This document shows positions 15,095-44,300 of a stretch of DNA of 64,000 nucleotides, in pieces. The position numbers and the translations under genes were made by a program. The notes beneath the pieces were generated by a model, which saw only the letters and a program-made list of their open reading frames with translations, was not told the origin of the DNA and searched no databases. The first letter of the stretch is position 1; each line of letters starts with the position of its first letter. The DNA is taken from assembly GCA_965222035.1 (NCBI GenBank), contig OZ244940.1, forward strand, positions 1,287,134 through 1,351,133, read 5' to 3'. This stretch comes from Candidatus Amphirhobacter sp. Its GTDB lineage: Bacteria; Pseudomonadota; Gammaproteobacteria; Tethybacterales; Tethybacteraceae.

Positions 15095-15096
15095 GC

Positions 15097-15972: not shown

Positions 15973-15974
15973 GG

Positions 15975-19150: not shown

Positions 19151-19532
19151 AATCTGTAATTATATGCTAGCGGTTGCCACAACCATATCACTTTTAAGAT
19201 ATGTTTTTATGCTGAAAAGAGCGTTAATAGTCAAATTATTGAAAATAAGAAGCAATTGTTTTTACTGAATTTCATTTTTTAAAGGGGCTTGAAATGGCGG
19301 TTTGTGAAAATAAGAATTCAGAGCTAGTGAGAGAGAGCCACCTGGATCCGCCGCCCTTGCCAGCCTTGTTTCCAGCAACGCCACAGCCACCGATTTGAGG
19401 CCAGCATCCAGTGCTTAGCCGGTCCAGCCGCGGCTAAAGAGGGAAAGATGGGATTTGGTCAAGCAGGCCTTGCCACCCTTTTAAGCGTAGAATCTTGGTA
19501 ATAACAAGCGAAATTAGCGTAAAATAAGCGAC

Positions 19533-22500
19533 ATGGCCGCTATCCTGGCCAGGACCTGGCTCAGGATCAGAAAAAAAAAGGGGGGGGGTAGAGCCTTGCA
19601 ACCTCGCGTAGCCACTGCCTGCTTCGCTTTAATCATCCTGCTCGCCGCGGCTGTCGCGCCGGCGCAGCAGGCCAATTGGGTAGACCAGGGACGCGATGGC
19701 GTGTCCCAGACCAGTTATTTCCATTTGCCGAGCACGACGGACAGCTCGACTGGCATCTCGTTCCATCGCAGCCACCCCAGCTGCCGCTTCAACGACGTGC
19801 GGCTGGTGAATCCGCCGACGTGGCTGGAGATGATCAAGTACAACGGGGACGCCAAGGACGGCGACCCCGGCACTCGCTTCACGGTGCGCATGGAGCGAGG
19901 CCATGCCGACGACCGCAGCCTGCGCCTGTCGTTCAAGGCCGGCTCGACCATGCCGACTGGAGCGCACACCCTGTCCCTGGCGGCCGAGCGCCACCTGACG
20001 AGCCCGGGCTGCTTGGGCGTCGCCGCCGCGACCTTGTCGCTGGAGTACACGATTAGCATCTTCGACAACATCTCGTGGATGGCGCAGGGGCTGCAGGCAT
20101 ATTATAACGGCGCGATCTACCGCACCGATGAGCTGGGCGGACTGGCGCTGGACACGGGCTTGCGGCTGCATCGCCGGCCGAACCTTTGCTCGAAGGTCGA
20201 CCTGTCTCTGGTCGGCGGTACCGAGGACTACCTGGAACTGCGCGCCTTTGAGGCGCAAAATGTTTTGTATCAAAGGCGGACAACGCCACCCTCTGGAGGA
20301 ACTACGGTTACCAACGTGGTCCTCAACACCGGGCGGCCGCTGGGCGCAGGAGCCGCCAGGCTTACCAACCTGGTCATGGATCGCGACAGCCCGCGCGACA
20401 GCTACGTGCGCTTGTTTCACAAGGCGAGCGTCGCTGTGTCCGAGGCGCTCGAGATAACCGTCTCGGTTGCATTCGAGACCAGCCGGAGCTGCGGTTTCCC
20501 GGCGACGGTGCGCAAGCAAACGCTGGATTTCATGCGGCATCATGTTGCGCTTGCGCCAACCCAGTACCAAGCCACATGGAAGCTGGAATCCGAGAGCCTG
20601 ACGCCGGACGGACCATTCAGCCCTGTGCGCATGAGAAGGTTCGGTTTAACGCCCACCGGCATTTTCTTAAATCGCTCTTCTTCCCTTTGCGTGGTTACAA
20701 ATATTCAGCTGCTCAACCACACTGACAAATTCGATATCTACGCCTCCGCGGGCGCCGACGCACTTACAGAAAACCAAGGCGATCATGCAATCAAAAACAA
20801 AACCGGCCATGCCATTGCCTGGGTTATACCAGATGGCAAGGATCTGCCCGCTGCGGGTAGTGTCCTGCGGCTGTCTGTGCTCATGCGATCCAATCCCTTT
20901 CAATGCACTAACAACAACATCGCGCCCAGACAGACCCTGGCTTTCGCCTTGACCGTAGCCACGCCGGCGACGTGGGGTGTCCTGGCCGGCGATGTCACAC
21001 GGCAGACGGGACTGCTCCAGCCGTCGGTGATCAGGGCGTCGGCCACACCGACGGACACCGGGGTGCGTTTCCACCGCGGCACCTCCGCATGCCCCTTAGT
21101 GGACATACTGATGCAACCCAATCCGCATTTGGAAATGCAACTGTACAACGGCAACACCGCGACTGGAGCGGGGGTCACCACAATAAACGGCGTGCGCATG
21201 CAGGTTGGCCATGCGGATGATCGTCTAGTGGGACTGCAGTTCCGGGAGCGAGCTACGGTGCCGAATGGCACGCTGACGGTCACGCTAGAGGCGAGCGCAT
21301 CATCTGGCTGCGAGGCTGCGGACGAGCCGTGGCCGTTGACCTTAACCTACACGCTGACAGTGCAGGAGCGCTGGTCGTGGGAGACGCAGAGCCGGGACAA
21401 CTTCGGCACTCAGCTGGAACTCTCGCGGGCGGACCTGGACGGGGCCGGCTTGGTGGCGACCGGCCTGCGGATCCATCGCGACTCCCATGCCTGCCAGAGC
21501 ACCGACGTGGCGCTGGCGGCGGACGCGCCGTCGTACCTGTCGCTGCGGCGCTACACCGCCGCGGGCGCGACGGACGGCGACGCGGCGGCGACGCTGGCCG
21601 GCGTGAACATGTCGGGATCAGGGGCGAATGACCGCCATGTGCAGGTGATGATCGACGGCGGCACGCAGATCACGCCGGGCGCGACCGTGCTGGTCACGCT
21701 GACGGTCAGCCCGAACTCGTCCTGCACCGGCAACCTCCATCCGGAGGCGCAGCAGCTGGTCGGCAAGGTGCTGCCTGTCAATCCGGACGGCTGGGAGAGC
21801 ATCGCCGGCGACGTGGCCTCGCGCCCGCGGATCCTGTTCCGGCCGTCGCAGCTGCGGGCGGCCGCCACGCCGACGGACACCGGGCTGCGCTTCCACCGCG
21901 GCACCGATTCGTGTCCGCTGGTGGATGTGGTGCTGCGGAACACCGATTATCTGCAGCTGCAGCGGTACACCCCCGCCGGCGCCGTGTCGGGCGCGGCGGG
22001 ATCGTCCTTCACCAACGTGCGCATGGCGGCCGGCCATGCCAGCGACCGGCTGGTGGGCGTGCAGTTCAAGGCCGGCGTCCAGGTCCCGGCGACTAGCCTG
22101 ACGCTGACGCTGGTGGCGCAGCCGGTGTCCTCCTGCGTCAATCCGCGCAAGCCGCGGCCGTTGACGATGTCTTACACGTTGGCGGTGGCGGAGCATTGGC
22201 CGTGGCGGCTCAAGCCGCAGGACAATCTAGGCATGGTGGTGAGCCTGGAGGTGGAGAACCTGGCGGTGTCCGGCCCGGTGGCGACCGGGCTGCGGCTGCA
22301 TCGCGACATCCTGGTGTGCTCGAACTTCGACGTGGCGCTGGCGGCGGACGCGCCGAGTTACCTGAAGCTGCGCAAGTACCTGGGCAACGGCGCGACGGAC
22401 GGCGCGGCGGCGCGGTCGCTGACGGGCGTGGACGTGTCCGGCGCGGGCGCGCTCGCCCGGCATGTGCGGGTGGCGATCGACGGCGGCACCAGCTTCACGG

Positions 22501-25500
22501 GCCTGACGACGGTGAGGGTTACGATGACGGTCGCGACCAACGCCTCCTGCGCGAGCGAATCGGGCGCGCCGTCGGCGCGCGCGCTGGTCGGCACGGTGGC
22601 GGTGTTCACGGCGAAGGAGGAGTGGAAGACCCTGGCTGGCGACGTGGCGCGGCGCGATACCGTGCTGTTCAACAGGGTTTACCTCACGGCGACCGACACC
22701 GGGCTGCGCTTCCACCGCGGTACCGACGCCTGCCCGGACGTGGACATCGCTCTGAGCTCGGTCGATCAGCTGCAGCTGCAGTTGTACAACTCCAGCGGCT
22801 CCGCGGTCGGCTCCGCGTCCGATTCCTTCACCAACGTGCGCATGAAGAGCAACGACACCAATGACCGGCTGGTGGGCGTGCTGTTCCCGGCCAATACGAT
22901 CATCCCGTCAGGGACGGGGTCATCGACCCTGACGCTGACCGCGACTCCGAACGCGAGCTGCACCAACCCGGGCAAGCCCGATGATTTGGTGCTGACCTAC
23001 ACGCTGTACGTCGGCGACACCTGGCCGTGGCGGACGCAGGCCCGGGACAATTTCGGCACGACGGTGAGCATGGCGCAGCTGGCCCTGACCGGCACCAATC
23101 CCGTGCCGACCGGGCTGCGGATCCATCGCGATTCGCAAGACTGCCAGGGCACCGACGTGGATCTGGCGTCGGCGTCGCCGAGCTATCTGAAGCTGGGCAA
23201 GTACCGCGCCAACGGCACGGCGGACGGCGCGGCGGCGCGGTCGCTGGATGACGTGTATATGTTCGGCTCGGGCTCGGTCGACCGGCATGTGGAGGTGATG
23301 ATCGACGGCACCACCAGCTTCACGGGCCTGACGACGCTGAAGGTCACGCTGACGGTGGCGCCCGGCCTCTGCGTGGCGTCGACCCTTCCGGATGATGAGA
23401 CGCTGGTCGGCAACCTGGTGATGGTCCCGCCGGAGGCATGGGGAATCCTGAGCGGCGACGTGGCCGCGCTGGCGCGGACGAAGCTGTTCCAGCCGTCAGC
23501 GCTGCGGGCCGCTGCGTCGGCGTCGGACACCGGCCTGCGCATCCACCGCGGCACCGCGGCCTGTCCGGACGTCGATGTCGTGCTGCGGACTGCCCAGCAT
23601 CTGGAGCTGCAGGGCTACGACGCATCAGGGATCGCGACTGGCTCGGCGAGCTCAGCCCTGCGCAACGTGCGCATGCAGTCCATCTCTCCCAACGACCGCC
23701 TGGTGGGCCTGCAGTTCAAGGCGGGCACCCAGGTGACGCCGGGCATGCTGACGGCGACGGTGGAGATGAGCGCGAACGCGTCCTGCACGCATGTGGCCGC
23801 GCCGGCGGGCCTGACGCTGACCTACACCCTCGCGGTGCTCGAGCACTGGCCGTGGCGGACGCAGCCGCAGGACAACATGAACTCGCCGGGCCAAGTTTCC
23901 CAGGGGGCGTTGACCGGGACCACTAATCCGGTGCAGGTCGGCCTGCGGCTGCATCGCGATACGCTGGCGTGCCAGAACGTCGATGTGGCGCTGGCGAGCA
24001 ATGCGCCGTCGTACATGAAGATTGGCAAGTACCGCGCCAACGGCGCGTCCGACGGCGCGGTGGCGCGGTCGCTGACGGGCGTGAACATGTCCGGCTCAGG
24101 CGCGGACGACCGGCATGTGCGGGTGTCCTTCGACGGCGGCGCCAACGTGCAGGTGAACACGGACATCAAGATCACGATGACGCTCACGCCGAACGCTACG
24201 TCCTGTACGGGCGTGGGCCATCCGCCGGCGACGCAGCTGGTCGGGACGGTGATCGTCCGGCGGGGAGCGGCCTGGCTCGAGCTGAACGGCAATGTGGCGA
24301 CGCTCAATCACACCATCTTGTTCCAGCCGTCGACGCTGCGGACGTCGACGACGCCGACGGATACCGGATTGCGCGTGCATCGCGGTACCTCGACCTGTCC
24401 GGATATCGACATCACGCTGCGGACGACCACCCACATGGAGATGCAGAAGTACACCGCCGCCGGCGTCAAGGACGGCGCGGCGTCGATAGCCTTCGCCACC
24501 TTGCGCATGGAGAACAACCACAACAGCGACCGGCGCGTCGGTTTGCAGTTCCGGTCGGGCGTCTCGATAGCGGCCGGCATGCTGACGGCGACAGTGGTGG
24601 TGAGCGCGACGCCGACCTGCGCCGCGGTCTATCCGGTGCCGCTGACGCTGGCCTACACGCTGGCGGTGCTGGAGTACTGGCCGTGGCGCAGCCAGGCACA
24701 GCATAACTTCGGGACCCAGGCGCGGTTCCCCCATCTGTCCTTGGGCGGAACGAATCCGACGCCGACTGGCCTGCGGCTGCATCGCGACGCGCGGGCGTGC
24801 CAGAGCATCGACGTGGCGCTGCATTCGGGCGCGCCGAGTTACCTGAAGCTGCGCAAGCACCAGGCCGACGGCACGGCGGACGGCGCCGCGGCGCGGTCGC
24901 TGAGCGGAGTGAACATGTCCGGCACGGGCGCGGCCGGCCGGCACGTGCGGGTGGCGATCGACAGCGGCAGCGGCCTGGCAGCGAACACCACGGTGATGGT
25001 GACGCTGACGGTCTCGCCCAATTCCTCCTGCGCGGGCGTGGGCCATCCGCCGGCGCAGCAGCTGGTCGGCACGGCGGTGGCGGTGCCGCCGGAGGACTGG
25101 AGCGTACTGGCCGGCGACATATCCGCGGCCGGCCGGCTGCTGTTCCCGCCATCACGGACCAGGTCGTCCAACACGGCGATCGACACCGGGCTGCGGCTGC
25201 ATCGCGGCACCAACGCCTGTCCGGACGTGAACGTCACGTTGCGCAACACCATGCATCTGGAGCTGCGGCGGTATCAAGGCACCCGATCGACCGGCGACGC
25301 GGCGACATTCTTCACCAACGTGCGCATGCAAGCCGGCAACGCCAACGACCGGCGGATCGGGGTGCAGTTCCGGGCGGGGGCGCAGGTCCCGGCGGGCCCG
25401 GTGGAGCTGACGCTGGTGGCGGAGGCGAGCGCGTCCTGCACCGATGCGGCGAAGCCGCGGCCGTTGACGCTGTCGTACACGCTGTCAGCGCTGGAGAACT

Positions 25501-28500
25501 GGCCGTGGCGCAACCAGGCGCAGGACAATTTCGCGACGCGCGCGCAGATCGACGGCGCCGCCGTGCTGACTTCGGGCGCGGTCCCGACCGGCCTGCGGCT
25601 GCATCGCAACATCCTGGTGTGCTCGAGTTTTGACGTGGCGCTGGCGACGGGCACGCCGAGCTACGTGAAGCTGGGTAGTTACCGCGCCGACGGGACGGCG
25701 GACGGCGCGGCGGTGCGGTCGCTGGCGGGCGTGAACATGTCCGGCACGGGCGTGCTGGATCGCCATGTGCGGGTGACGTTCGACGGCGGGACGAGGTTCA
25801 GCGCCAGCGCCATCTTGCGCGTGACCTTGACGGTAGCGACCAACAGCTCCTGCGACAGCCAATCCGGCGCGCCGTCTGCGCAGGAGCTGGTCGCCGAGGT
25901 GGATGTGGTGCCGGCGCAGACGTGGAGCGCGCTGGCCGGCGAAGTGACGAGCCGCGACCGCATCCTGTTCAAGCCCACTCAAATCAGGGCAGCCAACTCA
26001 GCCACCGACACCGGACTGCGGCTGCATCGCGGCACTGCAGCCTGTCCGGATGTCGACATAACCTTGCGCAACACCACGCATCTGGAGCTGCGGAAATACA
26101 ACGGCAGCGCTGCTGACGGCGCGGCGGCAACGTTCTTCAACAACATTCGCATGAAGGCCGGCGACGCCAACGACCGGCTGGTGGGCGTGCAGTTCCGGGC
26201 GGGGGCGACGCTGACGGCAGGTCCGTTTACGCTGACCTTGATCGCGCGCCCGACCTCGGCGTGTACGAACCGGGCCCGGCCGGGTCCGCTGACGCTGGCC
26301 TACACGCTGTCGGTGCTGGAGAACTGGCCGCAGCGCAACCAGAGCCAGGACAATCTCGGTACGCGGGCGCGGATTGCGGCGCTGTCGATAGAGGATGGGA
26401 CCGGCGCGGTGCTGACCGGCTTGCGGCTGCATCGCAACATCCTGGTGTGCTCGAGCTTCGACGTGGCGCTGGCAAGCGGCACGCCGAGCTATGTGAAGCT
26501 GCGCAAGTACCAGACCAACGACACCGCGGATGGCGCAGCGGCGCGCTCCTTGACGGGCGTGGCCATGCTGGGCTCGGGCGCGGCCGACCGCCACGTGCGG
26601 ATCGCGATCGACGGCGGGACGAGCTTCACGCAGCAGACGACCTTGCCCATCACGATGACCTTGTCGACCAACAGTTCCTGCAGCAGCCAGTCGGGCGCGC
26701 CGGCTTCGCATCAACTGGTCGGCACAGTGGAAGTGGTGCCGCCGGCGGCCTGGAGTGCGTTGAACGGCGATGTCGCCAATCGCGACCGCATCTTGTTCCG
26801 GCCGTCGGCGATCAGGGCGGCCAGCTCGGCGATCGACACCGGGCTGCGGCTGCATCGCGGCAACACAGCTTGCCGGGAAGTCGCGGTGATTCTGAACAAC
26901 ACCACGCACTTGGAGCTGCGGCAATACACCAGCAGCGCGGCGACGGGATCGGCGGCGACGTTCTTCCCCTTCGTTCACATGGAGAACAACCATGCCAGCG
27001 ACCGGCGGGTGGGGGTGCAGTTCCGGGCGGGGGCGACGGTCTCGGCGGGCCCGCTGGAGTTGACGCTGGAGGTGGGGGCGAGCTCACTCTGCTCGCATAT
27101 CGCGAAGCCGCGTCCGCTGACGCTGTCGTACACGCTGTCGGTACAGGAAGACTGGCCGCTGCGCAACCAAGGCCAGGACAACCTTGGCACGCAGGCCCAG
27201 CTGCCGGCCTTGTCGCTGAGCGGCGTGTCCGGCGCGGTGCCGACCGGCCTGCGCTTGCACCGCAACATCTTCGTATGCTCGAGCTTCGACGTGGCGCTGG
27301 CGAGCGGCACGCCGAGCTATGTGAAGCTGCGCAAGTACCAGACCAACGGCACGGCGGACGGCGCGGCGGCGCGGTCGCTGACGGGCGTGGCCATGCCGGG
27401 CTCGGGCGCGGCCGACCGGCATGTGCGGATCGCGATCGACGGCGGCACGAGCTTCACGCAGCGGACGACCTTGCCAGTGACGCTGACGATGTCGACCAAC
27501 AGTTCCTGCGCGAGCCAATCGGGCGCGCCGGCTTCGCACCAGCTGGTCGGTACGGTGGTGGTGGTGCCGCCGGCGTCCTGGAGCGAGCTGGCCGGCGACG
27601 TGGACACGCTGGCGCAGACCTTGTTGTTCCAGCCGTCGGCGATCAGGGCGGCCAACTCGGCGACCGACACCGGCCTGCGGCTGCATCGCGGGACCGCGGC
27701 CTGCCCGAACGTGGACGTGACGCTGAACACCACCACGCACCTGGAGCTGCGGCAATACACCAGCAGCGCGGCGACGGGCTCGGCGGCGACCTTCTTCAAC
27801 AACATCCGCATGCAGAACAACCATGCCAATGACCGGCGGGTGGGCGTGCAGTTCCGGGCGGGCGCGACGCTGACGGCGGGTCGGCTGACGTTGACGCTGA
27901 TCGCGCGGGCGAACGCGTCCTGCACGGACCCGGCGAAGCCGCGTGACCTGACGGTGGCGTATGAGCTTGAGATTCGCGAGAACTGGCCGTGGCGCACGCA
28001 AGGCCAAGACAACCTCAGCACGCAGGCGCGGCTGGCCGTGCTGGCATTGAACTCGACCAATCCGGTGCTGACCGGACTGCGGCTGCATCGCGATTCGATA
28101 GCATGCCAGAGCACTGATGTGGCGCTGGCTTCGGATTCGCCGAGTTACCTGAAGCTGCGCAAGTACCAGGCCAACGGCACGGCGGACGGTTCAGCGGCGC
28201 GATCGCTGAGCGGCGTGAACATGTCCGGCTCGGGCGCGGCCGACCGCCACGTGCGGATCGCGATTGACGGCGGCACCAACATAGCGGCAGGAACCTTTTT
28301 GCGGGTGACGTTGACGGTCACGCGAAACTCCTCCTGCACGGGCCAGGGCCATCCGCCGGCGACGCAGCTGGTCGGTACGGTGGCGCTGGTGGCAGCCGAG
28401 GCTTGGGGCGCGTTGGCCGGCGACGTGGCCAACCGCGACCGCATCCTGTTCAAGCCGTCGCAGGTCAGGTCCTCCAACACGGCGACCGACACCGGGCTGC

Positions 28501-31500
28501 GCTTCCATCGCGGCACTTCGGTCTGCCCGGATGTGGACGTGACGCTGCGCAACACCACGCATCTGGAATTGCGGCAATACACTAGCAGTTCAGCGACCGG
28601 CTCGGCGAACACGTTCTTCCGCAACATCCGCATGCAGAACAACCATGCCAATGACCGGCGGGTGGGCGTGCAGTTCCGGGCGGGCGCGACGCTGACGCCG
28701 GGCCCGCTGACGCTGACATTGATCGCGGAAGCGAACGCATCCTGCACGAACCCGGCGAAGCCGGTGCCGTTGACGCAGGCGTACACGCTCTCGGTACAGG
28801 AAGACTGGCCGCTGCGCAACCAAGGCCAGGACAATCTCGGCACGCAGGCGCGGCTGCCTGCCTTGTCGCTGAGCGGCGTATCCGGCGCGGTGCCCACCGG
28901 CCTGCGCTTGCATCGCAACATCTTCGTGTGCTCGAGTTTCGACGTGGCGCTGGCGTCCGGCACTCCGAGCTACGTGAAGCTGCGCAAATACCAGACCAAC
29001 GGCACGGCGGACGGCGCGGCGGCGCGATCCTTGACGGGCGTGGCCATGCCGGGCTCGGGAGCGGCCGACCGCCATGTGCGAATCGCGATCGACGGCGGGA
29101 CGAGTTTCACGGGGTTGACGACCTTGCCAATCACGCTGACGATGTCGACCAACAGTTCCTGCGCGAGTCAGTCGGGCGCGCCGGCTTCGCACCAGCTGGT
29201 CGGTACGGTGGTGGTGGTGCCGCCGGCGTCCTGGAGCGAGCTGACTGGCGACGTGGATACGCTGGCGCAGACCTTGTTGTTCCAGCCGTCGGCGATCAGG
29301 GCGGCCAACTCGGCGACCGACACCGGGCTGCGGCTGCATCGCGGCACTTCAGCCTGTCCGAACGTCGATGTGACCTTGCGCAACACCACGCATCTGGAGC
29401 TGCGGCAATACACCAGCAGCGCGGCGACGGGCTCGGCGGCGACCTTCTTCAACAACATCCGCATGCAGAACAACCATGCCAACGACCGGCGGGTGGGCGT
29501 GCAGTTCCGGGCGGGCGCGACGCTGACGGCGGGCCGGCTGACGCTGACGCTGATCGCACGGGCGAACGCATCCTGCGCCGATGCGGCGAAGCCGCGCGAC
29601 CTGACGGTGGCGTATGAGCTGGAGATTCGCGAGAACTGGCCGTGGCGGACGCAAGGCCAAGACAACCTCAGCACGCAGGCGCGGCTGGCCGTGCTGGCGT
29701 TGAACTCGACCGATCCGGTGCCGACCGGCCTGCGGGTGCATCGCGATTCGCTGGCGTGCCAGAGCACCGATGTGGCGCTGGCGTCGGGTTCGCCGGCATA
29801 CATGAAGCTGCGGAAGTACCAGACCAACGGCACCGCGGACGGCTCAGCGGCGCGGTCGCTGAGCGGCGTGAACATGTCCGGCTCGGGCGCGGCCGACCGG
29901 CATGTGCGGGTGACCTTCGATGGCGGCACCGACCTGGCAGCGGGCACCAACTTGCAAATCACGCTTACGGTCACGCCGAACTCCTCCTGCACGGGCCAGG
30001 GCCATCCGCCGGCGACGCAGCTGGTCGGTACGGTGGCGCTGGTGGCAGCCGAGGCTTGGGTCGCGCTGGCCGGCGACGTGAACAATCGCGACCGCATCCT
30101 GTTCCGGCCATCGGCGATCAGGGCAGCCAGCTCGGCGACCGACATCGGGCTGCGCTTCCATCGCGGCACCTCGGTCTGCCCGGATGTGGACGTGACGCTG
30201 CGCAACACTACGCACCTGGAGCTGCGGCAATACACCAGCAGCGCGGCGACGGGATCGGCGGCGACCTTCTTCACCAACATCCGCATGCAGAACAACCATG
30301 CCAATGACCGGCGGGTGGGGGTGCAGTTCCGGGCGGGCGCGACGCTGACGCCGGGCCCGCTGACGCTGACATTGATCGCGGAAGCGAACGCATCCTGTAC
30401 GAACCTGGCGAAGCCGCTGCCGTTGACGCAGGCGTACACGCTGTCGGTGCAGGAGCAATGGCCGCTGCGTAACCAAGATCAGGACAATCTCGGCACGCAG
30501 GCGCGGCTGCCGGCGCTGTCGCTCGAGGGCGTGTCCGGCGCGGTACCGACCGGCCTGCGTCTGCACCGCAACATCTTCGTGTGCGATAACTTCGACGTGG
30601 CGCTGGCGTCTGGTACGCCGAGTTACGTGAAGCTGCGCAAGTACCAGACCAACGGCACGGCCGACGGCGCGGCGGCGCGGTCGTTGACGGGCGTAGACAT
30701 GTCCGGCTCGGGCGCGAATGACCGGCATGTGCGGATCGCGATCGACGGCGGCACGAGCTTCACGCAACAAACGACCTTGCCGATCACGCTGACGATGTCG
30801 ACCAACAGCTCTTGCGCCAGCCAGTCGGGCGCGCCGGCTTCGCACCAGCTGGTCGGCACAGTGGTGGTGGTGCCGCCGGCGGCCTGGAGCGCGTTGAATG
30901 GCGACGTGGCGAATCGCGATCGCATCCTGTTCAAGCCGACGGAGATCAGAGCTTCCGGCTCGGGAATTGACACCGGCCTGCGTCTGCATCGCGGCACCTC
31001 GGCTTGTCCGAACGTGGATGTGACGCTGCACACCACCACGCACCTGGAGCTGCTGCAATACAGCAGCACCGGGTCGACGGGGGCGACATCGACGTTCTTC
31101 AACAACATCCGCATGCAGAACAACCATGCCCAAGACCGACGGGTGGGCGTGAAGTTCAATCCCGGAGAGACGGTCCCGGCGGGCCCGTTAACGCTGACGT
31201 TGATCGCGAGGGCGAACTCGTCCTGCACGGATCCGGCGAAGCCGCGTGATCTGACGCTGGCCTACACGCTGTCGGTGCTGGAGAACTGGCCGCTGCGCAA
31301 CCAGGGCCAGGACAACCTCGGCACGCAGGCGCGGATGCCAGCGCTGTCGCTCGAGGGCGTGACCGGCGCAATTCCCACCGGCTTGCGTCTGCATCGCAAC
31401 ATTTTTGTGTGCTCGAGCTTCGACGTGGCGCTGGCGTCCGGCACTCCGAGCTACGTGAAACTGCGGAAATACCAGACCAACGGCACGGCGGATGGCGCGG

Positions 31501-34500
31501 CGGCGCGGTCGCTGAGCGCCGTGGCCATGCCAGGCTCAGGCGCGGCCGACCGCCACGTGCGGATCGCGATCGACGGCGGCACGAGCTTCACGCAGCAGAC
31601 GACCTTGCCCATCACGATGACCATGTCGACCAACAGCTCCTGCGCCAGCCAGTCGGGCGCGCCGGTCTCGCATGAGTTGGTCGGCAGAGTGGTGATTGTG
31701 CCGCCGGCGGCCTGGAGCGCGCTGGCCGGCGACGTGCTTACGCGCCCCCGCATCCTGTTCCAGCCATCGGCGATCAGGTCGTCCAACACGGCGACCGACA
31801 CCGGGCTGCGTCTCCATCGTGGTACTTCGGCCTGTCCGAACGTGGACGTTACGCTGCGCAACACCACGCACCTGGAGCTGCGGCAATACACCAGCAGTTC
31901 AGCGACGGGCTCGGCGGCGACGTTCTTCCGCAACATTCGCATGCAGAACAACCATGCCAATGACCGGCGGGTGGGCGTGCAGTTCCGGGCGGGCGCGACG
32001 CTGACAGCGGGTCCATACGCGCTGACATTGGTCGCGAGCGCGAACTCCTCCTGCGCCGATGCGGCGAAGCCGCGTCCCTTGACGCTGGCGTACACGCTTT
32101 CGGTGGAGAACGGCTGGCCGCTGCGCAACCAGGGCCAAGACAATCTCGGGACGCAGGCGCGGCTGCCGGCCTTGTCGCTGAGCGGCGTGTCCGGCGTGGT
32201 GCCCACTGGCCTGCGCCTGCATCGCAACATCTTCGTATGCGACAGCTTCGACGTGGCGCTGGCGAACGGCACCCCGAGTTACGTGAAGCTGCGCAAATAC
32301 CAGACCAACGGCACGGCGGACGGCGCGGCGGCGCGATCGCTGACGGGCGTGGCCATGCCGGGCTCGGGCGCGAATGACCGGCATGTGAGGATCGCGATCG
32401 ACGGCGGCACGAGCTTCACGCAACAAACAACCTTGCCGGTGACGCTGACGATGTCGACCAACAGTTCCTGCGCGAGCCAGTCGGGCGCGCCGGCTTCGCA
32501 TCTGCTGGTGGGCACGGTGGTGGTGGTGCCGCCGGCGTCCTGGAGCGAGCTGGCCGGCGACGTGGACACGTTGGCGCAGACCCTGCTGTTCCAGCCGTCG
32601 CGGGTCCGCGCCTCCAACGCGGCGATTGATACCGGATTGCGGCTGCATCGCGGCACCGCGGCCTGCCCGAACGTCGATGTGACCTTGCGCAACACCATGC
32701 ATCTGGAGCTGCGGCAATACACCAGCAGCGCGGCGACGGGATTGGCGGCGACCTTCTTCAACAACATTCGCATGGAGAACAACCATGCCAATGACCGGCG
32801 GGTGGGCGTGCAGTTCCGGGCGGGCGCGACGTTGACGGCGGGTCGGCTGACGCTGACATTGATCGCGCGGGCGAACGCATCCTGCGCCAATGCGGCGAAG
32901 CCGCGTGATCTGACGGTGGCGTATGAGCTGGAAATACGCGAGAACTGGCCGTGGCGGACGCGGGGCCAGGACAATCTCAGTACGGAAGCGAAGTTGGCTG
33001 TGGCGGCGTTGAACACGACTGGCGAGGTGCCGACCGGCCTGCGGGTGCATCGCGATTCGCTGGCGTGCCAGAGCACCGATGTGGCGCTGGCGTCGGGTTC
33101 GCCGGCATACATGAAGCTGCGCAAGTACCAGGCCAATGGCACGGCGGACGGCTCAGCGGCGCGCTCGCTGACAGGCGTGAACATGTCCGGCTCGGGCGCG
33201 GCCGACCGGCATGTGCGGGTGACCTTCGATGGCGGCACCAACCTGGCGGTGGACATAACCTTGATGGTGACGCTGACGGTCACGCGCAACGCCTCGGCCT
33301 GCTCGGGTTTCGGGCACCCGCCGGCGACGCAGCTGGTCGGCACGGTGGCGATGGTAGCGGCCGCAACCTGGAGCACGCTGCCTGGCGATGTTGCCAATCG
33401 CGACCGCATCCTGTTCCGGCCGTCGGCGGTCAGGTCGTCCAACTCAGCGACCGACACCGGGCTGCGCTTTCACCGCAGCACTACGGTTTGCCCGGACATC
33501 GACGTGACCTTGCGCAACACCACGCACCTGGAGCTGCGGCAATACACCAGCAGTTCGGCGACGGGATCGGCGGCGGCATTCTTCCGCAACATGCGCATGC
33601 AGAACAACCATGCCAATGACCGGCGGGTGGGCGTGCAGTTCCGGGCGGGCGCGACGCTGACGCCGGGCCCGCTGACGCTGACCTTGATCGCGGAGGCCAA
33701 CTCTTCTTGCACCAACCCGGCCAAGCAGCTGCCGCTGACGCTGGCGTACACGCTGTCGGTGCAGGAGGACTGGCCGCTGCGCAACCAAGGCCAGGACAAT
33801 CTCGGTACGCAGGCGCGGCTGCCGGCGCTGTCGCTAGAGGGCGTGACCGGTACGGTGCCGACCGGCTTGCAGCTGCACCGCAACATCTTCGTGTGCGATA
33901 ACTTCGATGTGGCGTTGGCGAACGGCACGCCGAGCTACGTGAAGCTGCGGAAATACCAGGCCAACGGCAATGCGGACGGCGCGGCGGCGCGCTCGCTGAC
34001 GGGCGTAGACATGTCCGGCTCGGGCTCGACCGACCGGCATGTGCGGATCGCGATCGACGGCGGCACGAGCTTCACGCAGCAGACGACCTTGCCGATCACG
34101 CTGACGATGTCGACCAACAGCTCTTGCGCCAGCCAGTCGGGCGCGCCGGCTTCGCATCAGCTGGTGGGCACGGTGGTGGTGGTGCCGCCGGCGGCTTGGA
34201 GCGCGTTGGCCGGCGACGTGGCCGCGCGCGACCGCATCCTGTTCAAGCCGACGCAGATCGAAGCTTCCAACTCAGCGACCGACACCGGGCTGCGGCTGCA
34301 TCGCGGCACTTCAGCCTGTCCGAACGTCGATGTGACCTTGCGCAACACCACGCATCTGGAGCTGCGGCAATACACCAGCAGCGCAGCGACGGGCTCGGCG
34401 GCGACCTTCTTCAACAACATTCGCATGGAGAACAACCATGCCAATGACCGGCGGGTGGGCGTGCAGTTCCGGGCGGGCGCGACAGTGACGGCAGGGCCGT

Positions 34501-37500
34501 TCACGCTGACGCTGATCGCGCGGGCGAATGCGTCCTGCACGGACTCGGCGAAGCCGCGCGACCTGACGCTGGCCTACACGCTGTCGGTACTGGAGAACTG
34601 GCCGCAGCGCAACCAGGGTCAGGACAACCTCGGTACGCAGGCGCGGATGCCGGCGCTGTCGCTAGAGGGCGTGACCGGCGCGATACCCACCGGCTTGCGG
34701 CTGCACCGCAACATCTTCGTGTGCTCGAGCTTCGACGTGGCGCTGGCGTCCGGCACGCCGAGCTACGTGAAGCTGCGCAAGTACCAGACCAACGGCACGG
34801 CGGATGGCGCAGCGGCGCGGTCGCTGACGGGCGTGGCCATGCCGGGCTCGGGCGCGGCCGACCGCCACGTGCGGATCGCGATCGACGGCGGCACGAGCTT
34901 CACGCAGCAGACCACCTTGCCGATTACGATGACGATGTCGACCAACAGCTCCTGCGCCAGCCAGTCGGGCGCGCCGGTCTCGCACCAGCTGATTGGCACA
35001 GTAGTAGTGGTACCGCCGGCGGCCTGGAGCGCGCTGGCCGGCGACGTGCTCACGCGCCCCCGCATCCTGTTCAAGCCGACGCAGGTCAGGTCGTCCAACT
35101 CGGCGGTTGACACCGGGCTGCGCCTCCACCGCGGCACCTCGGCCTGTCCGAACGTGGATGTAACGCTGCGCAACACCACGCATCTGGAACTGCGTCAATA
35201 CACCAGCAATTCGGCGACTGGTTCGGCGGCGACGTTCTTCCGCAACATCCGCATGCAGAACAACCATGCCAATGACCGGCGGGTGGGCGTGCAGTTCCGG
35301 GCGGGCGCGACGCTGACAGCGGGCGCGTTCGAGCTGACATTGATCGTGAGCGCGAACTCCTCCTGCGCCGATGCGGCGAAGCCGCGTCCGCTGACGCTGG
35401 CATACACGCTGTCGGTGCAGGAAGACTGGCCGCTGCGCAACCAGGGCCAGGACAATCTCGGGACGCAGGCGCGGATCGCAGCTCTGTCGCTGAGCGGCGG
35501 GTCCGGCGTGGTGCAGACTGGACTGCGGCTGCACCGCAACATCTTCGTGTGCGACAGTTTCGACGTGGCGTTGGCGAACGGCACTCCGAATTACGTGAAG
35601 CTGGGCAAATACCAGGCCAACGGCACGGCGGACGGCGCGGCGGCGCGGTCCTTGACGGGCGTGGCCATGCCGGGCTCGGGCGCGAATGACCGGCATGTGC
35701 GGATCGCGATCGACGCCGGCACGAGCTTCACGACCTTGACGACGCTGCGGGTGACGATGACCTTGGCGACCAACAGCTCTTGCGCCAGCCAGTCGGGCGC
35801 GCCAGCCTCGCATGAGCTGGTCGGCGCGGTGGAGATAGTCCCGCCGGCGGCCTGGAGCGCATTGGCCGGCGATGTGTCCTCTTTGGCGCGGACCCTGCTG
35901 TTCCAGCCGTCGACGATCAGGTCTTCCAACACAGCTAGCGACACCGGCCTGCGGCTGCATCGCGGGACCTCGGCCTGTCCGGACGTCGACGTGACCTTGC
36001 GCAACACCACGCATCTGGAGCTGCGGAAATACAACGGCAGCACGGCGGACGGATCGGCGGCGACATTCTTCACCGACATTCGCATGCAGCAAGGCGACTC
36101 CAATGACCGGCGGGTGGGCGTGCAGTTCCGGGCGGGGGCGACGCTGACGGCGGGCCGGCTGACGCTGACGCTGATCGCGCGCGCGAACACGTCATGCACC
36201 AATGCGGCGAAGCCGCGCGACCTGACGGTGGCGTATGAGCTGGAGATTCGCGAGAACTGGCCGTGGCGGACGCAAGGCCGCGACAATCTCGGCACGCAAG
36301 CGCAGGTGGCTTCGGTGGCGCTGGAGACGACCGGCCCGGTACCGACCGGCCTGCGGCTGCATCGCGATTCGCTGGCGTGCCAGAGCACCAACGTGGCGCT
36401 GGCGTCCAACGCGCCGAGTTACCTGAAGCTGCTCAAGTACCGGAGCAACGGCACCGTGGACGGCTCGGCGACCCGGTCGCAGACGGCCGTGAACATGTCC
36501 GGCTCGGGCGCCAACGACCGCTACATAGAGGTCGCGGTCGACGGCGGTACCTCCATAGCGGTGGACACCACCTTGGCGGTGACGATGACCATCAGGCCGA
36601 ACTCCTCGTGCACCGGCCGGGGCCATCCGCCGGCGACGCAGGTGGTGGGCACGCTGGTCGTGGTCGAGGCCGCGCCCTGGAGCATGTTGACCGGCGACGT
36701 CGCCAATCGCGACCGCATCCTGTTCCGGCCGTCGGCGGTCAGGTCGTCTGGCTCGGCGACCGATACCGGCCTGCGCTTCCACCGCAGTACTACGGTCTGT
36801 CCGGACATCGATGTGACCCTGCGCAACACCGCGCATCTGGAGCTGCGGCAATACACCGGCAGTTCGGCGACGGGTTCGGCGGCGACATTCTTCCGCAACA
36901 TGCGCATGCAGAACAATCATGCCAACGATCGTCTGGTAGGAGTGCAGTTCCGGGCAGGCGCGAATGTCCCGGCGGGTCCGCTGGCGCTAACGTTGATCGC
37001 GGAGGCGAATTCGTCTTGCACCAATCCGGCGAAGCAATTGCCGCTTACCCTGGCGTACACGCTGGAAGTGCGGGAAGACTGGCTGCTGCGCAACCAGGGC
37101 CAGGACAATCTCGGCACGCAGGCGCGGCTGCCGGCCTTGTCGCTGAGCGGCGCGACCGGCGTGGTGCCCACCGGCCTGCGGCTGCACCGCAACATCCTGG
37201 TGTGCTCGAGCTTCGATGTGGCGCTGGCGAACGGCACGCCGAATTACGTGAAATTGGGCAAATACCAGGCCAACGGCAACGCGGACGGCGCGGCGGCGCG
37301 GTCGCTGACGGGCGTGGCCATGCCGGGATCGGGCGCGGCCGACCGGCATGTGCGGGTGGCGATCGACGCCGGCACGAGCTTCACGACCTTGACGACGCTG
37401 CGGGTGACGATGACCTTAGCGACCAACAGCTCTTGCGCCAGCCAGTCGGGCGCGCCGGCTTCGCATGTGCTGGTCGGCACGGTGGCGGTGGTGCCGCCGG

Positions 37501-40500
37501 CGGCCTGGAGCGAGCTGGCGGGCGACGTGGACACGTTGGCGCAGACCCTGCTGTTCCAGCCGTCGACGATCAGGTCTTCCAACACAGCGAGCGACACCGG
37601 CCTGCGGCTGCATCGCGGCACCTCGGCCTGCCCGGACGTCGATGTGACCCTGCGCAACACCACGCATCTGGAGCTGCGGCAATACACGAGCAGCGCGGCG
37701 ACGGGATCGGCGGCGACGTTCTTCACCAACATCCGCATGCAGAACAACCATGCCAATGACCGGCGGGTGGGCGTGCAGTTCCGGGCGGGCGCGACGCTGA
37801 CGGCGGGCCGGCTGACGCTGACATTGATCGCGCGGGCGAACGCCTCCTGCACCGATGCGGCGAAGCCGCGCGATCTGACGGTGGCGTACGAATTGGAAGT
37901 GCGCGAGAACTGGCCGTGGCGGACGCAAAGGGAAGACAACCTGAGCACGCAAGCGCGGGTGGCTTCGATCGCGCTGGAGACCACCGGTCCGGTGCCGACC
38001 GGCTTGAGAGTGCAGCGCGATTCGCTGGCGTGCCAGAGCACCGACGTGGCGCTGGCATCGGGATCGCCGGCCTACATGAAGCTGCTCAAATACCGGAGCA
38101 ACGGCACGGCGGACGGTTCCGAGGCGCGGACGCAGAGCGGCGTGAACATGTCTGGATCGGGTGCGAGCAACCGCTATGTAGGGGTCACGTTCGACGGCGG
38201 TACTAATATAGCGATTGACACCACCTTGCAGATCACGCTTACGGTCACGCCGAACTCCTCCTGCACGGGCCAGGGCCATCCGCCGGCGACGCAGGTGGTG
38301 GGCACGGTGGTCGTGGTCGAGGCCGAGCCCTGGAGCATCTTGACCGGCGACGTGGCCAACCGCGACCGGATCCTGTTCAAGCCGTCCCAGATCCAAGCGG
38401 GCGCGGCGACTGACACCGGCCTGCGCTTCCACCGCAGCACTTCGGTCTGTCCGGACATAGATGTGACGCTGCGCAACACCGCGCATCTGGAGCTGCGGCA
38501 ATACACCGGCAGTTCGGCGACGGGTTCGGCGGCGGCGTTCTTCCGCAACGTGCGCATGCAGGCCAACCATGCCAACGACCGGCGGATTGGAGTGCAGTTC
38601 CGGGCGGGCGCGAACGTCCCGGCGGGCCCGCTGACGCTGACGTTGATCGCGGAGGCGAACTCTTCCTGCACCAATCCGGCCAAGCAGTTGCCGCTGACCC
38701 TGTCCTACACGCTGGAGGTACGGGAGAACTGGCCGCTGCGCAGCCAGAACCGGGACTCTCTCGGTACGCAGGCGCGGATCGCGGCGCTGTCGGTGGGCAG
38801 CGCGACCGAGCCGCTGCAGACCGGCTTGCGCTTGCACCGCAACATTTTCGTGTGCTCGGAGTTCGACGTGGCGCTGGCGGCGGGCGCGCCGGCGTACCTG
38901 AAGCTGGGCAAATACCAGGCCAACGGCACCGCGGACGGCGCGCCGGCGCGGTCGCTGACGGGCGTGGCCATGCCGGGATCGGGCGCGGCCGACCGCCACG
39001 TGCGAGTGGCGATCGACGGCGGCACGAGCTTTACGGCCCTGACGACCGTGCAGGTGACGATGACCCTGGCGACCAACAGCACCTGCGCGAGCCAGTCGGG
39101 CGCGCCGGCTTCCTATCAGTTGGTCGGCACGGTGGTGATAGTGCCGCCGCAGGCCTGGGGCGCGTTGGCGGGCGACGTGGCGGAGCGGGACGACACCTTG
39201 TTCCGGCCGACGCGGATTCGCGCCTCGAACGCGGCGATCGACACCGGCTTGCGCTTCCACCGCGGCACTTCGGTCTGCCCGGACGTCGATGTGACGCTGA
39301 ACACCACGACGCACCTGGAGCTGCGCCAATACACCAGCAGCGCGGCGGACGGCGCGGCGGCGACGTTCTTCCGCAACGTGCGCATGCAGGCCAGCCACGC
39401 CAACGACCGGCGGGTGGGGGTGCAGTTCCGGGCGCGCGCGACGGTGACGCCGGGTCCGCTGACGCTGACGCTAGTGGCGCGGGCGGCTTCGAGCTGCACG
39501 GCGCTGAACGCGCCGGCGCCGCTGACCATGGCGTACACATTGGCGGCGCTGGAGAAATGGCCGTGGCGGATCCAGGGCCAGGACAGCTTCACCGCGCCGG
39601 CGAGCGTCTATCTCTCGGCCTTGGCGACGACGGGCGTAGTCCCGACCGGCCTGCGGGTGCACCGCAACTCGCCGGCGTGCTCGAGCGTCGACGTGGCGCT
39701 GGCGGCCGGCTCGCCGGCCTATCTGTCGCTGCAGCGCCACAGCGCGGCGGGTGTCGTTGACGGCGCGCCGGCGCGGTCGCTGACGGCGGTGAACATGGCG
39801 AGCACGGGCGCGGCCGCCCGGCATGCGCAGGTGATGATCGCGGGCGGGACCACCTTGACGACCGGCGCGACAGTGATGGTATCGCTGTCGATCGCGCCCA
39901 ACGCCTCCTGCGCCGGTACCGAGGGCGTCCAGGATCTAGCGGACCTGGTCGGCAGCATCCTGGTCCTCGGCCGGGGCCAGGAGGAGATTACGCAGGAATC
40001 GATCCAGGCGGGCAACGCCATGGCGATGCGCATGATGGGGCTGGAGACCCTGGATGCGGTGCTGGCGCGCGGCGCGGCGGGCTCGGGCGCGGCGGCCACC
40101 GAGCAGCTGCTCGGCATGCTGGCGGCCAAGGAAGCCGGGCTGGAGAGCGGCGACATCGACCTGCGCGAGTTCCTTGCGGGCCAGAGCTTCGAGCTGGCGG
40201 CGCGGCCGGGCACCGCATCAGGCGCGGGCGCCGCGATATGGGGCCGCGCGGCCGCCTTCAAGACCGCCTCGACGGTGTCGGCTGCGACAGAGCTGGAAAG
40301 CGAATTGTTCAGCGCGCACTTTGGGGGCGACTACCGCTGGAGCAACGGCTTCGTGCTGGGGCTGGGCCTCGGCCGCCACGAGCTGGAGGGTACTTATAAG
40401 GAAGAGAGGGTTGCCGGCAGCTATCAGCTGGAGCTGGATCTGTACCAGCCGTATGCGGTGATGCCGCTGGGCCCGGCTGGCTGGCTGGCGGCCTACGGCA

Positions 40501-41322: not shown

Positions 41323-44300
41323 ATGGAAGGGCGTTTGATTCGCCATGAAAGGGGGGGGGGTAGCGCCCTTCTAAGCGGCCTGGCGGTTGCGGCCGCCTTG
41401 TTGCTGACGGGCGTGATGATGGCGCCGCAGGCGCATGCTCAGGTGCAGGTTGTCCTAGGAAACCTCCACAAGACAACGGCCGACAAGGTTCTCACTTATC
41501 CCTATGAGGCTGGCCTGACCGGCATCGCTTTCCATGTGACTACATGCGGCGCTCCATCCAACATTGTTCTGCAAACCCGCACCGACGATTTTGACCTGGT
41601 AAGTTATTTCGTCGTACAAGGCCAAATCGGCGTTCGAGAAGGCCGCGGCGACAGCCGAAATGCCGTCGGCCGCGTCCACTACCTGGAGCTAGTTGACGGC
41701 CGGGACAGCCTGCCGGACGGTCCTCTGACCGTTACGGTCAAAGTTTGCAACCAGGCGCCATCGGCCTACACCGTCACGGTGGCGACGTGGTACGACCAGG
41801 GCATGCACAGCGACCGGCCCGCCAGCCGCCACGTCCGAGACATTGCGCCTGGCCAAGACACCGGCATCGCCATTCATCGCAGCGCCAACACGTGTCGCTT
41901 CACCGACGTGCGGCTGGCGGCCGGCGCGCCGGCTTGGCTGGAGCTGCGCCGGCATCGCGCCGACGGCACCGCCGACGGCGACGCCGGGCAGCGTTTGACG
42001 GCGCGGATGGAGAAGGACCATGCCGACGACCGGCATGTGCGCGTGCGCTTCAAGGACGACGCCAGCATGGAGCCGGGCAGCTATGTGTTCTCGATCGTGA
42101 TGGCGCGCACGGCGACCAGCGGCGCGGGATGCACCGCCGCGAGCGCGGCGGCGTACACGCTAGGCTACACCCTCAACATCAGTTTGGGAGCCAGCTGGGA
42201 ACGTCAGGAATCCCTGAACAGCGACAGCGTCACAAGCCACAGTGCGGATGCTTTGGGCGGGCCGTTCGCATTGGCGATGGGCCCGCGCATCCACCGCAGC
42301 TCCTCTTCATGCCGGTGGACGGACGCGAGCCTGGTGGCCGGCGGCTCGTTCTTGGCTATGCAGCGCTACGCCACAACGGGCAACGAAGCGGTTGGCGCGC
42401 CGGCGACCAGCGTGACCGACGTGCGCATGCAGCGCGGCTCTCCGGGCGATCGATATCTCGGCTTGATCTATCGCCGGAATACGCCAGTGCCAGCGGGGAC
42501 GGTGACCGCGGCGGTGGAACTCAAGCCGGCCGCGCGCTGCGCGAATTACGTCGGCATCCCCGGGCCGCTGACGCTGAGCTTCACCGCCACGATCGGCGCG
42601 GCAGCTGCCAACACGGAGCCCTGGATCATCAAGACCGGCTTCGCGAGCTCGGCGCCGACCATCTCGGTCTTCAGCCCGGCCAGCATCCACACGTCCCGCA
42701 CATATAGGGAAATACATACCGGCATCTTCATCGGCCGGCGCACGGCGACTTGCAACGATTATTCCTACAACCTGCTCAATCACCGCGATCTGTTCGAAGT
42801 CGGATACTATCCACTTCACACAGGCTACCAAGACAATATTCAACCCGACGATTCGTTTAGCCGGAATCGCTCCTTCAATTTCGGTGACAACGATGGAGGC
42901 TTCGGCCTGCAGTTCGAGGCCGGCGCGCAGCCGGAGCCGAACACCACCATCACCCTGCATGTGGCGCTGGGCAGGTTTAGATGCGGCAGCCCCGCGCTGA
43001 CCACGCTGTCGTACACCATGACCATTGGCCCGGCGGCGCCCTGGGGAACCTTGGCGAACAATGTCGCGACGGTGACCACGCTGTTCAGGCCCACGCAGCT
43101 GGCGGCCGCCGCGTCGGCGACCGACACCGGCATCCGCTTCAACCGCGGCGTGGCGACGAGCATCTGCACGAACGTGGACGTGGAGCTGGCGAGCGGCAGC
43201 CGCACCCATGTGGAACTGCAGAAGTACAACGGGACGGCGGCCGACGGCGCGGCGGCGGTTTCGTTCGGGGGCCTGACCATGCATGCGGGCGCGACGGGCA
43301 ATCCGGTGGGCCTGCAGTTCAAGGCGGGCGCGTCGGTGCCGGCCGGCGTCCTGACGGTGGCGGTGATCGCCAAGCCCGCCGGCAGCTGCGATCATGCGGA
43401 AGAGCCAATCCCGCTGACGGTGAATTATGAGCTGGTGGTGGGCGAGCGGCAGCCGTGGCAGGTGCACGATCTCGACAGCATGGGACGGGTGGTACTGCTC
43501 GACGGCTTTGCGGCGCAAAGGAGCGCGGCCGACTCCGGCCTGCGGGTGCACCGCAAGCTGAGCGGCTGCAGCTCCATGGATGTGTCGCTGCCAGACGACG
43601 CGCCTGATTGGGCGATGCTGCAGCAGCATGGCCCGAGCGGCCCGGTCGGCGCGCGCGCGCGGACCCAGGCGGCGGTGCCGATGGCGGGCTCGGGCGCGGC
43701 CGGCGACCGGCATGTGCGGCTGATGATCGTGCCGTCGGGGACGCCCCTGCCGGATGCGCGGCTGACGATGGGCGTCGCGGTGGCGGCCAACGCATCATGC
43801 GGGGCCGGCAGCGACATTCCGGCGCCGCAGATGCTGTCGGGCGTGGTGGTGTTTGACACCCAAGGCGTGGGCACGGAGCAGGCGATCCAGGCGGGCGCTT
43901 CGGCGGCGGTACGGGCAATCGGCTTGGAAACCCTGGACGCGGTCATGGCGCGGCCGGACGCCGTGGCCGGATCATGGTCCAGCGAGCTGCTCGGCTTGAT
44001 GCACGCGCACGAGGCCGAGCTCGAGCGCGGCGAGTTCGAGCTGCGGGACCTGGCGGGCGAGGAGTTCGCGCTGGCTTTGTCGAACAGTCCGACCGGCTTG
44101 CCGGCGGGCCTGGCCCTGTGGGGACGTTTCGCTGCCTACGATGTCGGCAATGAGATCGAAGGCGGCGCGCGCTCGGACAATGAATTGTTCAGCGCGAGCT
44201 TCGGCCTCGACTACCGCCTGCGCGCGGGCATGATGCTCGGCCTGGGCTATGGCCACCACGAGATCGACGGCAGCTACGCTGCCAGCTCGGCCAGCGGCAT

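Follow-up and report, generated by a model that had tools for sequence, protein, structure and literature searches.

A 64-kb window of contig OZ244940.1 from Candidatus Amphirhobacter sp. (the window being the whole stretch of 64,000 nucleotides that was analyzed) contains a giant gene, most of which consists of 23 tandem copies of a unit encoding two domains (Table 1). We consider it likely that this array is real and old, the product of in-frame amplification of a module of ∼276 amino acids (aa), and that it forms the stalk of a giant surface protein. The original prediction, made from the DNA letters, had described the region as near-identical repeats that recombination would lengthen or shorten. 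The periodicity and the recombination between units are borne out by our analysis, whereas the near-identity and the length variation are not.

The ∼827-bp periodicity within a single gene is evident from the distances between repeated sequence words (k-mers) in the giant open reading frame (ORF), which peak at 828, 1653, 3309 and 3312 bp. The 21.7 kb of this ORF contain 2,065 distinct repeated 20-mers where our own calculation gives an expectation of <0.01, and thus chance cannot explain the periodicity; distinct repeated 30-mers number 1,340. Nothing comparable was found in repeated k-mers in the rest of the window save in a cluster of paralogs at 43-57.5 kb. Tandem Repeats Finder does not report the array because the longest period searched was 500. 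Units were segmented with the recurring motif TGLRxHR...C as anchor, and the extent of the array was then set in domain register, affording 23 in-frame units, each composed of an A and a B domain. The location first proposed, 21450-39700, is therefore correct in the main, but the array starts ∼500 bp before that interval and ends ∼270 bp after it, and the predicted count of about 22 gives way to 23 units preceded by three divergent N-terminal copies of the domain (D1-D3). A profile hidden Markov model (HMM) accordingly finds 49 domain copies in the protein, 46 in the array in addition to D1-D3. The giant gene product is identical to the public protein P0006, whose gene lies on a contig of 1,855,096 bp. 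Across the array units the GC content at codon positions 1/2/3 is 0.62/0.55/0.88, and antisense ORFs of up to 660 aa within the array were dismissed as high-GC artefacts because the value of 0.88 at third positions marks the + frame.

The units are considerably less alike than the term near-identical implied. Compared in pairs over their whole length, units 1-6 and 23 show DNA identities of 60-75%, and units 7-22 are 70-89% identical among themselves, such that each unit is at least 11% different from each other unit, and the longest exact repeat is 110 bp (Table 1). Stretches of >90% identity do exist, as had been proposed: the best match of at least 1 kb spans 1,139 bp at 92.5% (27118-28256 vs 28771-29909, an offset of two units), quarters of the unit alignment (∼210 bp) reach 95-97%, and one 467-bp segment stands at 90%. 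Landmark 45-mers recur as had been noted, with the commonest present in eight copies at spacings of 822-831 bp or multiples thereof, but exact repeated 45-mers are confined to 13 kb (26061-38995) and not the ∼18 kb first given. Among the inner units (7-22) the minimum pairwise synonymous divergence (dS) is 0.25 and the median 0.45, with a median ratio of nonsynonymous to synonymous divergence (dN/dS, or ω) of 0.43. A minimum dS of 0.25 indicates that no recent duplication or homogenization has taken place; the units are old copies under moderate purifying selection and are not freshly homogenized.

The locus is also present in two further public assemblies, L001 and L083, the latter a scaffold of 264.8 kb that is free of Ns, and three lineages could be compared in all. 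L083 is syntenic with the window, with DNA identities of 93.1% in the flank and 92.7% in the array. Its orthologous ORF is intact (dN/dS 0.25) and encodes P0066, a protein of 7,249 aa with the same 23 units at identical unit lengths; all internal insertions and deletions (indels) between P0066 and the window protein fall at aa 251-440, and one residue is added at the C-terminal end. L001 is colinear with the window for 11.6 kb, equivalent to 14 units, at 97.9% identity (237 substitutions vs 9 gap positions). Thus, no gain or loss of units is seen between lineages that have diverged by ∼2% (over 14 units) and ∼7% (over the whole gene). Because the three assemblies differ in sequence they amount to independent data, and the array copy number is therefore neither an assembly artefact nor variable at the depth compared.

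That the copy number or unit order could reflect a collapsed or expanded repeat deserved consideration, given that assemblies are well known to fail on periodic 0.8-kb repeats. Some hazard does remain: the L001 contig starts inside the array, the L083 scaffold ends ∼2.4 kb past the giant gene and inside the next paralog, and a 26-domain relative from the symbiont AqS2 is annotated as partial and is devoid of the C-terminal β-domain. However, three assemblies that differ by 2-8% share unit order and unit lengths, the frame is intact over all 7,241 codons, and the absence of any exact repeat >110 bp among units that differ by at least 11% would make the array resolvable by 150-nt reads or by k-mers >110. 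We therefore regard an assembly artefact as highly improbable. The warning that short-read assembly would be unreliable here is largely unfounded for this locus, although caution on the assembly of such genes has some merit in general.

A second explanation holds that the array is a fast contingency device, in which RecA-mediated unequal crossover often adds or removes modules and generates size or antigenic variation on top of a homopolymer switch (see below). Substrates for such exchange are present in the repeated 30-mers, the exact matches of up to 110 bp and the ∼1-kb stretches at 92.5%; recombination between units is active in the form of gene conversion, and the array itself arose by such exchanges. 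In addition, family members elsewhere contain 1-26 domains. The constancy of unit number across the compared lineages argues against frequent change, as does the lack of any inner unit pair closer than dS 0.25, and the DNA repeats of proteins known to vary in length, such as alpha C/Rib and SasG/Aap, are nearly identical (at least ∼95%), which those of the array are not. The predicted length variation by unequal crossover is therefore not supported by the 23 shared units of L083 or the colinearity of L001, and we judge it unlikely that the array operates as such a device. Two considerations temper the view that the array is old and stable in length. The comparison comprises three lineages, one of them over just 14 units, and rare or within-population length variants are possible. 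Moreover, P0009, a relative with giant-type units and a near-identical β-domain, has just 13 domains, and copy number thus does change over deeper divergence.

The arrangement of similarity within the array suggests how it expanded. Identity is highest among units in the centre of the array and lowest for those at its edges. Off-diagonal blocks of similarity extend over 3,194 bp at 87.4% (offset of four units) and 2,143 bp at 86.1% (offset of two units), and the B-domain subtypes of units 8-22 follow the order 1 2 1 2 1 1 1 2 1 1 1 2 1 2 1. The similarity maxima at offsets of two and four units point to growth by multi-unit block duplications, and the array appears to have grown by unequal exchange of such blocks in its middle. 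Matches are best between registers separated by 2, 4 and 6 units, with an offset of one not favored, and consequently a present-day crossover would most likely change the length by 2, 4 or 6 units, and not by the single unit (two domains, ∼276 aa) that had been proposed as the step.

Recombination between units, which the original prediction had presumed, is borne out by the array itself and by the comparison with L083. The nearest neighbor of a unit shifts from quarter to quarter along its length in a mosaic pattern, and 30 of 189 L083 fragments of 200 nt (∼16%) are closer to a paralogous unit than to their positional ortholog; one such fragment is 99.5% identical to a unit four units away vs 91.3% to its ortholog. 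At the level of whole domains, 43 of the 46 array domains match their positional ortholog best, and the other three match partners 2 or 4 units away. Judged from these alignments, gene conversion between units is demonstrably active and represents recombination that proceeds without a change in copy number. Such tracts raise the possibility that the array serves chiefly for antigenic mosaicism, whereby short conversion tracts diversify an exposed stalk of fixed length. The mosaic nearest-neighbor pattern and the fact that the conversion tracts postdate the split of the lineages are compatible with this role, as is the raised dS of the array in the ortholog comparison (0.18 vs 0.08-0.13 in flanking transport genes). 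Nevertheless, ω between orthologs is 0.235 for the array and 0.18 for its core, indicative of purifying selection; conversion tends to homogenize, not diversify; and no immune pressure on the organism is known. The fastest part of the protein is instead its N-terminal region (aa 1-476), where ω is 0.445 (dN 0.15), compared with 0.10 for the β-domain, and where two domains retain 60-72% identity. We thus deem mosaicism quite improbable as the main role and favor an old stalk in which conversion takes place under purifying selection.

The same comparison locates the variable end of the protein. Most domains of the C-terminal half are 94-99% identical between the orthologous proteins, vs 60-72% for domains 2-4 near the N-terminus, where the region at 19650-21400 (aa 40-620) is the most divergent; all internal indels fall in D2-D3. 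These differences suggest that the N-terminal region is a fast-evolving distal tip. If export is autotransporter-like, the C-terminus would anchor the protein and the N-terminal region would therefore lie at the far end, with D1-D3 as the likely distal tip and binding end. A predicted Sec signal peptide, recognized by eye on the translation, comprises a basic n-region, a hydrophobic core and an AxA motif at aa 42-44. Each repeated domain contains one Arg and two Cys that are invariant among the 63 copies compared, with the two Cys ∼73 residues apart, and the giant protein has 99 Cys in total. An AlphaFold2 model of one unit consists of two β-sandwiches at a predicted local distance difference test score (pLDDT) of 91.7. 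Searches of Pfam and NCBIfam gave no match for the units, the N-terminus or the C-terminus, and none of the curated Pfam models of bacterial immunoglobulin-like (Ig-like) or cadherin domains (Big_1-13, Cadherin etc.) matched the repeated domain. From its architecture, the protein may be an autotransporter-like surface fibre in which the array forms the stalk, with adhesion as a putative function; scaling from the giant adhesin SiiE would give a length of roughly 150-200 nm. The 380 bp upstream of the gene (19151-19532) are markedly AT-rich relative to surroundings of ∼67% GC and probably contain the promoter and regulatory region.

Assignment of the export route rests on relatives of the giant protein. 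Five of 15 family members match PF03797, the Pfam Autotransporter β-domain, in each case inside the shared C-terminal domain, and one of them, P0032, lies above the Pfam cutoff (27.8 bits against a cutoff of 26), with P0027 at 25.6 and P0026 at 24.0. The latter two align to profile positions 1 to ∼210 of 255, and the homologs with PF03797 matches have profile E-values of 1e-83 to 1e-91. The giant protein would thus be linked to PF03797 through transitive homology only, via these relatives, and would carry a divergent version of the β-domain. The UniRef name of an AqS2 homolog begins ‘Autotransporte...’, and the secondary structure of the modeled C-terminal domain, with helices at 2-68 followed by long β-hairpins, has the expected order, albeit in a low-confidence model.

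Several observations weigh against the assignment. The giant's own C-terminus has no Pfam match at E≤10 and no meaningful PDB sequence match in a profile search; the AlphaFold2 model of the C-terminal domain has a pLDDT of 46, at which strand number is unreliable; and the protein ends ...RIGD where the β-signal would have a C-terminal aromatic residue. Nearly all complete relatives likewise end in G[DE], and two end ...YWLE. In place of a β-helical passenger with few or closely spaced Cys there are 49 β-sandwich domains and 99 Cys, and a Cys pair in each of 49 passenger domains sits uneasily with this route because disulfide-bonded passengers are reported to translocate poorly (PMC1533851). 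The C-terminal ∼428 aa could therefore be another anchor or secretion module whose weak Pfam matches reflect generic β-barrel similarity, a view also consistent with the larger size of the domain relative to PF03797 (255 profile positions) and with OMP_b-brl being matched about as weakly as Autotransporter. The P0032 score above the cutoff, the near-complete alignments of P0026 and P0027 and the helix-then-hairpin order make such an alternative to type V secretion unlikely. The giant protein contains 0 GGxGxD motifs of the repeats-in-toxin (RTX) type, and the neighboring ATP-binding cassette (ABC) genes belong to a sugar-uptake system with a substrate-binding protein and a glycoside hydrolase family 32 (GH32) enzyme, with no type I secretion system (T1SS) genes nearby. 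An RTX/T1SS adhesin was rejected on these grounds, the nearby ABC genes being a sugar importer. An inverse autotransporter was rejected on topology, as the barrel-like domain lies at the C-terminus and is preceded by the Ig-like array. A literature search turned up no paper linking Tethybacterales with autotransporters.

The giant gene is one of five paralogs in the window that share the C-terminal domain (Table 1); the proteins of paralogs 4 and 5 share 76% identity. In its architecture the giant gene resembles the short paralogs, but with 23-fold amplification of the A-B pair. When 1.84 billion cluster representatives were searched exhaustively with a profile, 60 proteins were recovered at E≤1e-3, 46 of them at E≤1e-10. 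Among relatives with full-length domain matches, most contain 1-7 domains and, if complete, end in the shared C-terminal domain; larger arrays are limited to the partial 26-domain protein of AqS2 and in two metagenome proteins with 21 and 13 domains. AqS2 is a symbiont of the sponge Amphimedon and belongs to sponge-specific Tethybacterales with reduced genomes (PMC8546597). In a word-indexed search of 5.8 billion proteins, one unit as query retrieved fragments of a single contig only and the C-terminal domain (as sequence and as profile) just 2-3 proteins, and pattern scans of GTDB species genomes and JGI metagenomes revealed no relatives; the exhaustive profile search alone gave access to the family.

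Several features of the relatives are of note in their own right. In the 13-domain P0009 (L084 632-7648), the 5′ part shares 79.5% identity with paralog 2 of the window, and the 3′ part has 84.5% DNA identity over 4.2 kb to the last units and β-domain of the giant gene; P0009 thus looks chimeric, a probable sign that members of the family have recombined in a related genome. In the AqS2-type members P0004, P0005 and P0032, the repeat domains are separated from the β-domain by an additional segment without counterpart in the window proteins, and P0032 has a Pfam Cadherin match (E 1.8e-7) at this position. Genes for AAA_22-type ATPases, 79% identical to each other, are interleaved with the window paralogs at 45306-46463 (−) and 56256-57545 (−). 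Similar genes are found near family members on L084 at 7763-8971 (−) and on L082 at 21252-21968 (−), AqS2 included, and an AAA_22-type ATPase gene is a recurring neighbor of the family.

A separate mode of variation is suggested by homopolymer tracts. The 64-kb window contains only four homopolymers of at least 7 nt, and all four lie a few codons into four of the five paralogs (Table 1). Paralog 4 is out of frame as it stands, and addition of one G generates a 1,260-aa ORF with a signal peptide. In L083 the tract of the giant gene (10039-10056) is A8G10 vs A9G9 here, of equal total length and in frame in both, and that of paralog 2 (31845-31853) is G9 and out of frame vs G10 and in frame here. 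Such differences in tract length between lineages represent the natural variation expected of a phase switch. The combination of 5′ homopolymers with frame-shifted variants among copies and lineages is that of phase-variable genes, and the tracts may serve as on/off switches.

Table 1. Positions in the window of the giant gene, its parts and its paralogs.
Feature	Position	Strand	Description	Basis
Giant gene	19533..41258	+	7,241 codons + stop; signal peptide, 49 cadherin/Ig-like domains, C-terminal β-domain	ORF list, translation
Predicted Sec signal peptide	19533..19664	+	aa 1-44; ...LLAAAVAPA/QQ cleavage (/ = cut)	Read from translation
A9G9 tract, giant gene	19571..19588	+	Codons 13-19; TAG directly after, in another frame	
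D1-D3	19650..20957	+	Three divergent N-terminal domain copies	Domain HMM
Tandem array	20958..39971	+	23 two-domain (A+B) units, 819-834 bp, mean 826.7, all multiples of 3	
Unit starts 1-12	20958, 21780, 22599, 23430, 24264, 25086, 25911, 26739, 27570, 28392, 29223, 30045	+		
Unit starts 13-23	30873, 31701, 32532, 33357, 34185, 35013, 35844, 36666, 37497, 38316, 39144	+		
More homogeneous core	25911..39143	+	Units 7-22; higher-order 2-unit and 4-unit periodicity	
Longest exact repeat	29313..29422	+	110 bp; second copy 34275-34384, six units off; 11 consecutive repeated 100-mers, none at k≥111	
C-terminal domain	39972..41255	+	∼428 aa; helical linker + predicted β-barrel; ends ...LRLQLRIGD; common to five window paralogs	
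Paralog 2	41323-45150	+	5 domains + shared C-terminal domain	
G10 tract, paralog 2	41351-41360	+	In frame; TAG directly after	
Paralog 3	46645-48432	+	1 domain + shared C-terminal domain	
Paralog 4	48488-52269	+	5 domains + shared C-terminal domain	
G9 tract, paralog 4 (ATG 48488)	48513-48521	+	Out of frame; TAG directly after	
Paralog 5	52325-56113	+	5 domains + shared C-terminal domain	
G10 tract, paralog 5	52350-52359	+	In frame; TAG directly after	

A replication-origin gene set at 130-7468, where the window starts, includes 5-formyltetrahydrofolate cyclo-ligase, dnaA, dnaN and gyrB, with modest Pfam scores for DnaA and DnaN, and the window GyrB is at most 68% identical to that of any GTDB species representative, which suggests a poorly sampled lineage; this best match comes from an uncultured gammaproteobacterial metagenome-assembled genome, and the others stand at ∼50%. 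Two tandem genes of ∼200 aa at 8885-9487 (−) and 9590-10210 (−) have no Pfam match and share 76% protein identity; this pair (8885-10210) is lower in GC (0.556 over 8001-10000) and contains a 300-nt direct repeat spaced 717 bp apart. At 15036-17669, a mechanically called ORF of 877 aa fuses two genes, which in L083 are called separately: a second ABC permease of 291 aa and, after it, a 563-aa GH32 glycosidase.

A superposition of these features on known systems places the giant protein among familiar types of surface protein without matching any one of them. SiiE has 53 bacterial Ig-like (BIg) domains, is ∼175 nm long and needs its length for function, as deletion of >5 domains abolishes function (PMC6272769). 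Like SiiE, LapA and MpIBP, which are non-fimbrial adhesins exported by type I systems, the giant is one very large surface protein in which dozens of tandem, mutually diverged β-sandwich domains form a rod. Those proteins have C-terminal T1SS signals or RTX motifs and adjacent genes for ABC and membrane fusion proteins, whereas the giant has no GGxGxD and an autotransporter-like β-domain, and neither the Big nor the Cadherin models of Pfam match its repeated domain. The predicted order of signal peptide, passenger and C-terminal β-domain is that of type Va autotransporters such as Ag43 and AIDA-I, and relatives reach or near the PF03797 threshold; in contrast to these, the passenger is made up of 49 cadherin/Ig-like domains and 99 Cys and not of a β-helix, and the β-domain is divergent, larger and ends ...RIGD. 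Inverse autotransporters (intimin/invasin, type Ve) are likewise type V proteins with an exposed tandem Ig-like array, and some have dozens of Ig-like domains, but their barrel is N-terminal and their Ig array C-terminal, the reverse of the order in the giant, which has no Big_1, intimin or invasin Pfam match.

In-frame tandem repetition of whole domains in a surface protein is also a feature of alpha C/Rib of group B Streptococcus, staphylococcal SasG/Aap, Esp and Bap. The DNA repeats of these proteins are nearly identical and the repeat number differs among strains, whereas the units of the giant are 60-92% identical with a minimum dS of 0.25, and their number is shared by three lineages. 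Finally, the tracts of 9-10 G that four of the five paralogs carry close behind their start codons resemble the contingency loci of Neisseria and Haemophilus, including the autotransporter NalP; this likeness concerns the on/off switch and not the 827-bp array, and the organism here is an uncultured gammaproteobacterium and not a known pathogen. The giant protein is thus a variant of the familiar giant repetitive adhesins that is unusual for its uncatalogued domain, its Cys-rich passenger on an autotransporter-type anchor and its poly-G-switched cluster.

Taken together, the data are consistent with the following model. A Sec signal peptide would direct the giant protein to the periplasm, and the divergent autotransporter-type C-terminal β-domain, assigned by homology via relatives, would anchor it in the outer membrane. 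The 49 domains would then project outward, with the three fastest-evolving N-terminal domains at the distal tip as the likely binding end. In a paralog-like ancestor composed of N-terminal domains, A, B and the β-domain, the A-B pair may have been amplified in the middle of the array by exchange of 2- and 4-unit blocks, while edge units stayed divergent, as the identity pattern shows. At present the array would change by point mutation under purifying selection and by conversion tracts of a few hundred bp between units 2 or 4 apart. Its unit number would be constant presumably since stalk length matters, for which SiiE provides a precedent (PMC6272769), and on/off control would come from the 5′ A/G homopolymer tract and not from array length.

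The array is trustworthy as assembled, and one should not presume that it acts as a length switch. The giant gene accounts for ∼1.2% of a 1.86-Mb contig, a share suggestive of strong selection for a surface fibre of great length. On a more speculative view, an autotransporter-type β-domain would export up to 49 apparently disulfide-bonded cadherin-like domains, a cargo that current views of type V secretion would not expect; if so, translocation would have to follow a modified route or oxidation be delayed until after export. The locus may be of interest for type V secretion, giant adhesins and symbiont-host contact, as its repeated domain is absent from Pfam and NCBIfam, its autotransporter-like anchor carries a Cys-rich Ig-like passenger, and it sits in a cluster of poly-G-switched paralogs. 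The named members of the family come from the sponge symbiont AqS2, and the link to sponges rests on these AqS2 homologs. Speculatively, the giant could represent the largest protein known so far from a very small, uncatalogued and phase-variable family of surface proteins, maybe specific to symbionts and serving host contact, in which variation would sit at the tip and in on/off switching of the paralogs and the length of the stalk would be fixed.

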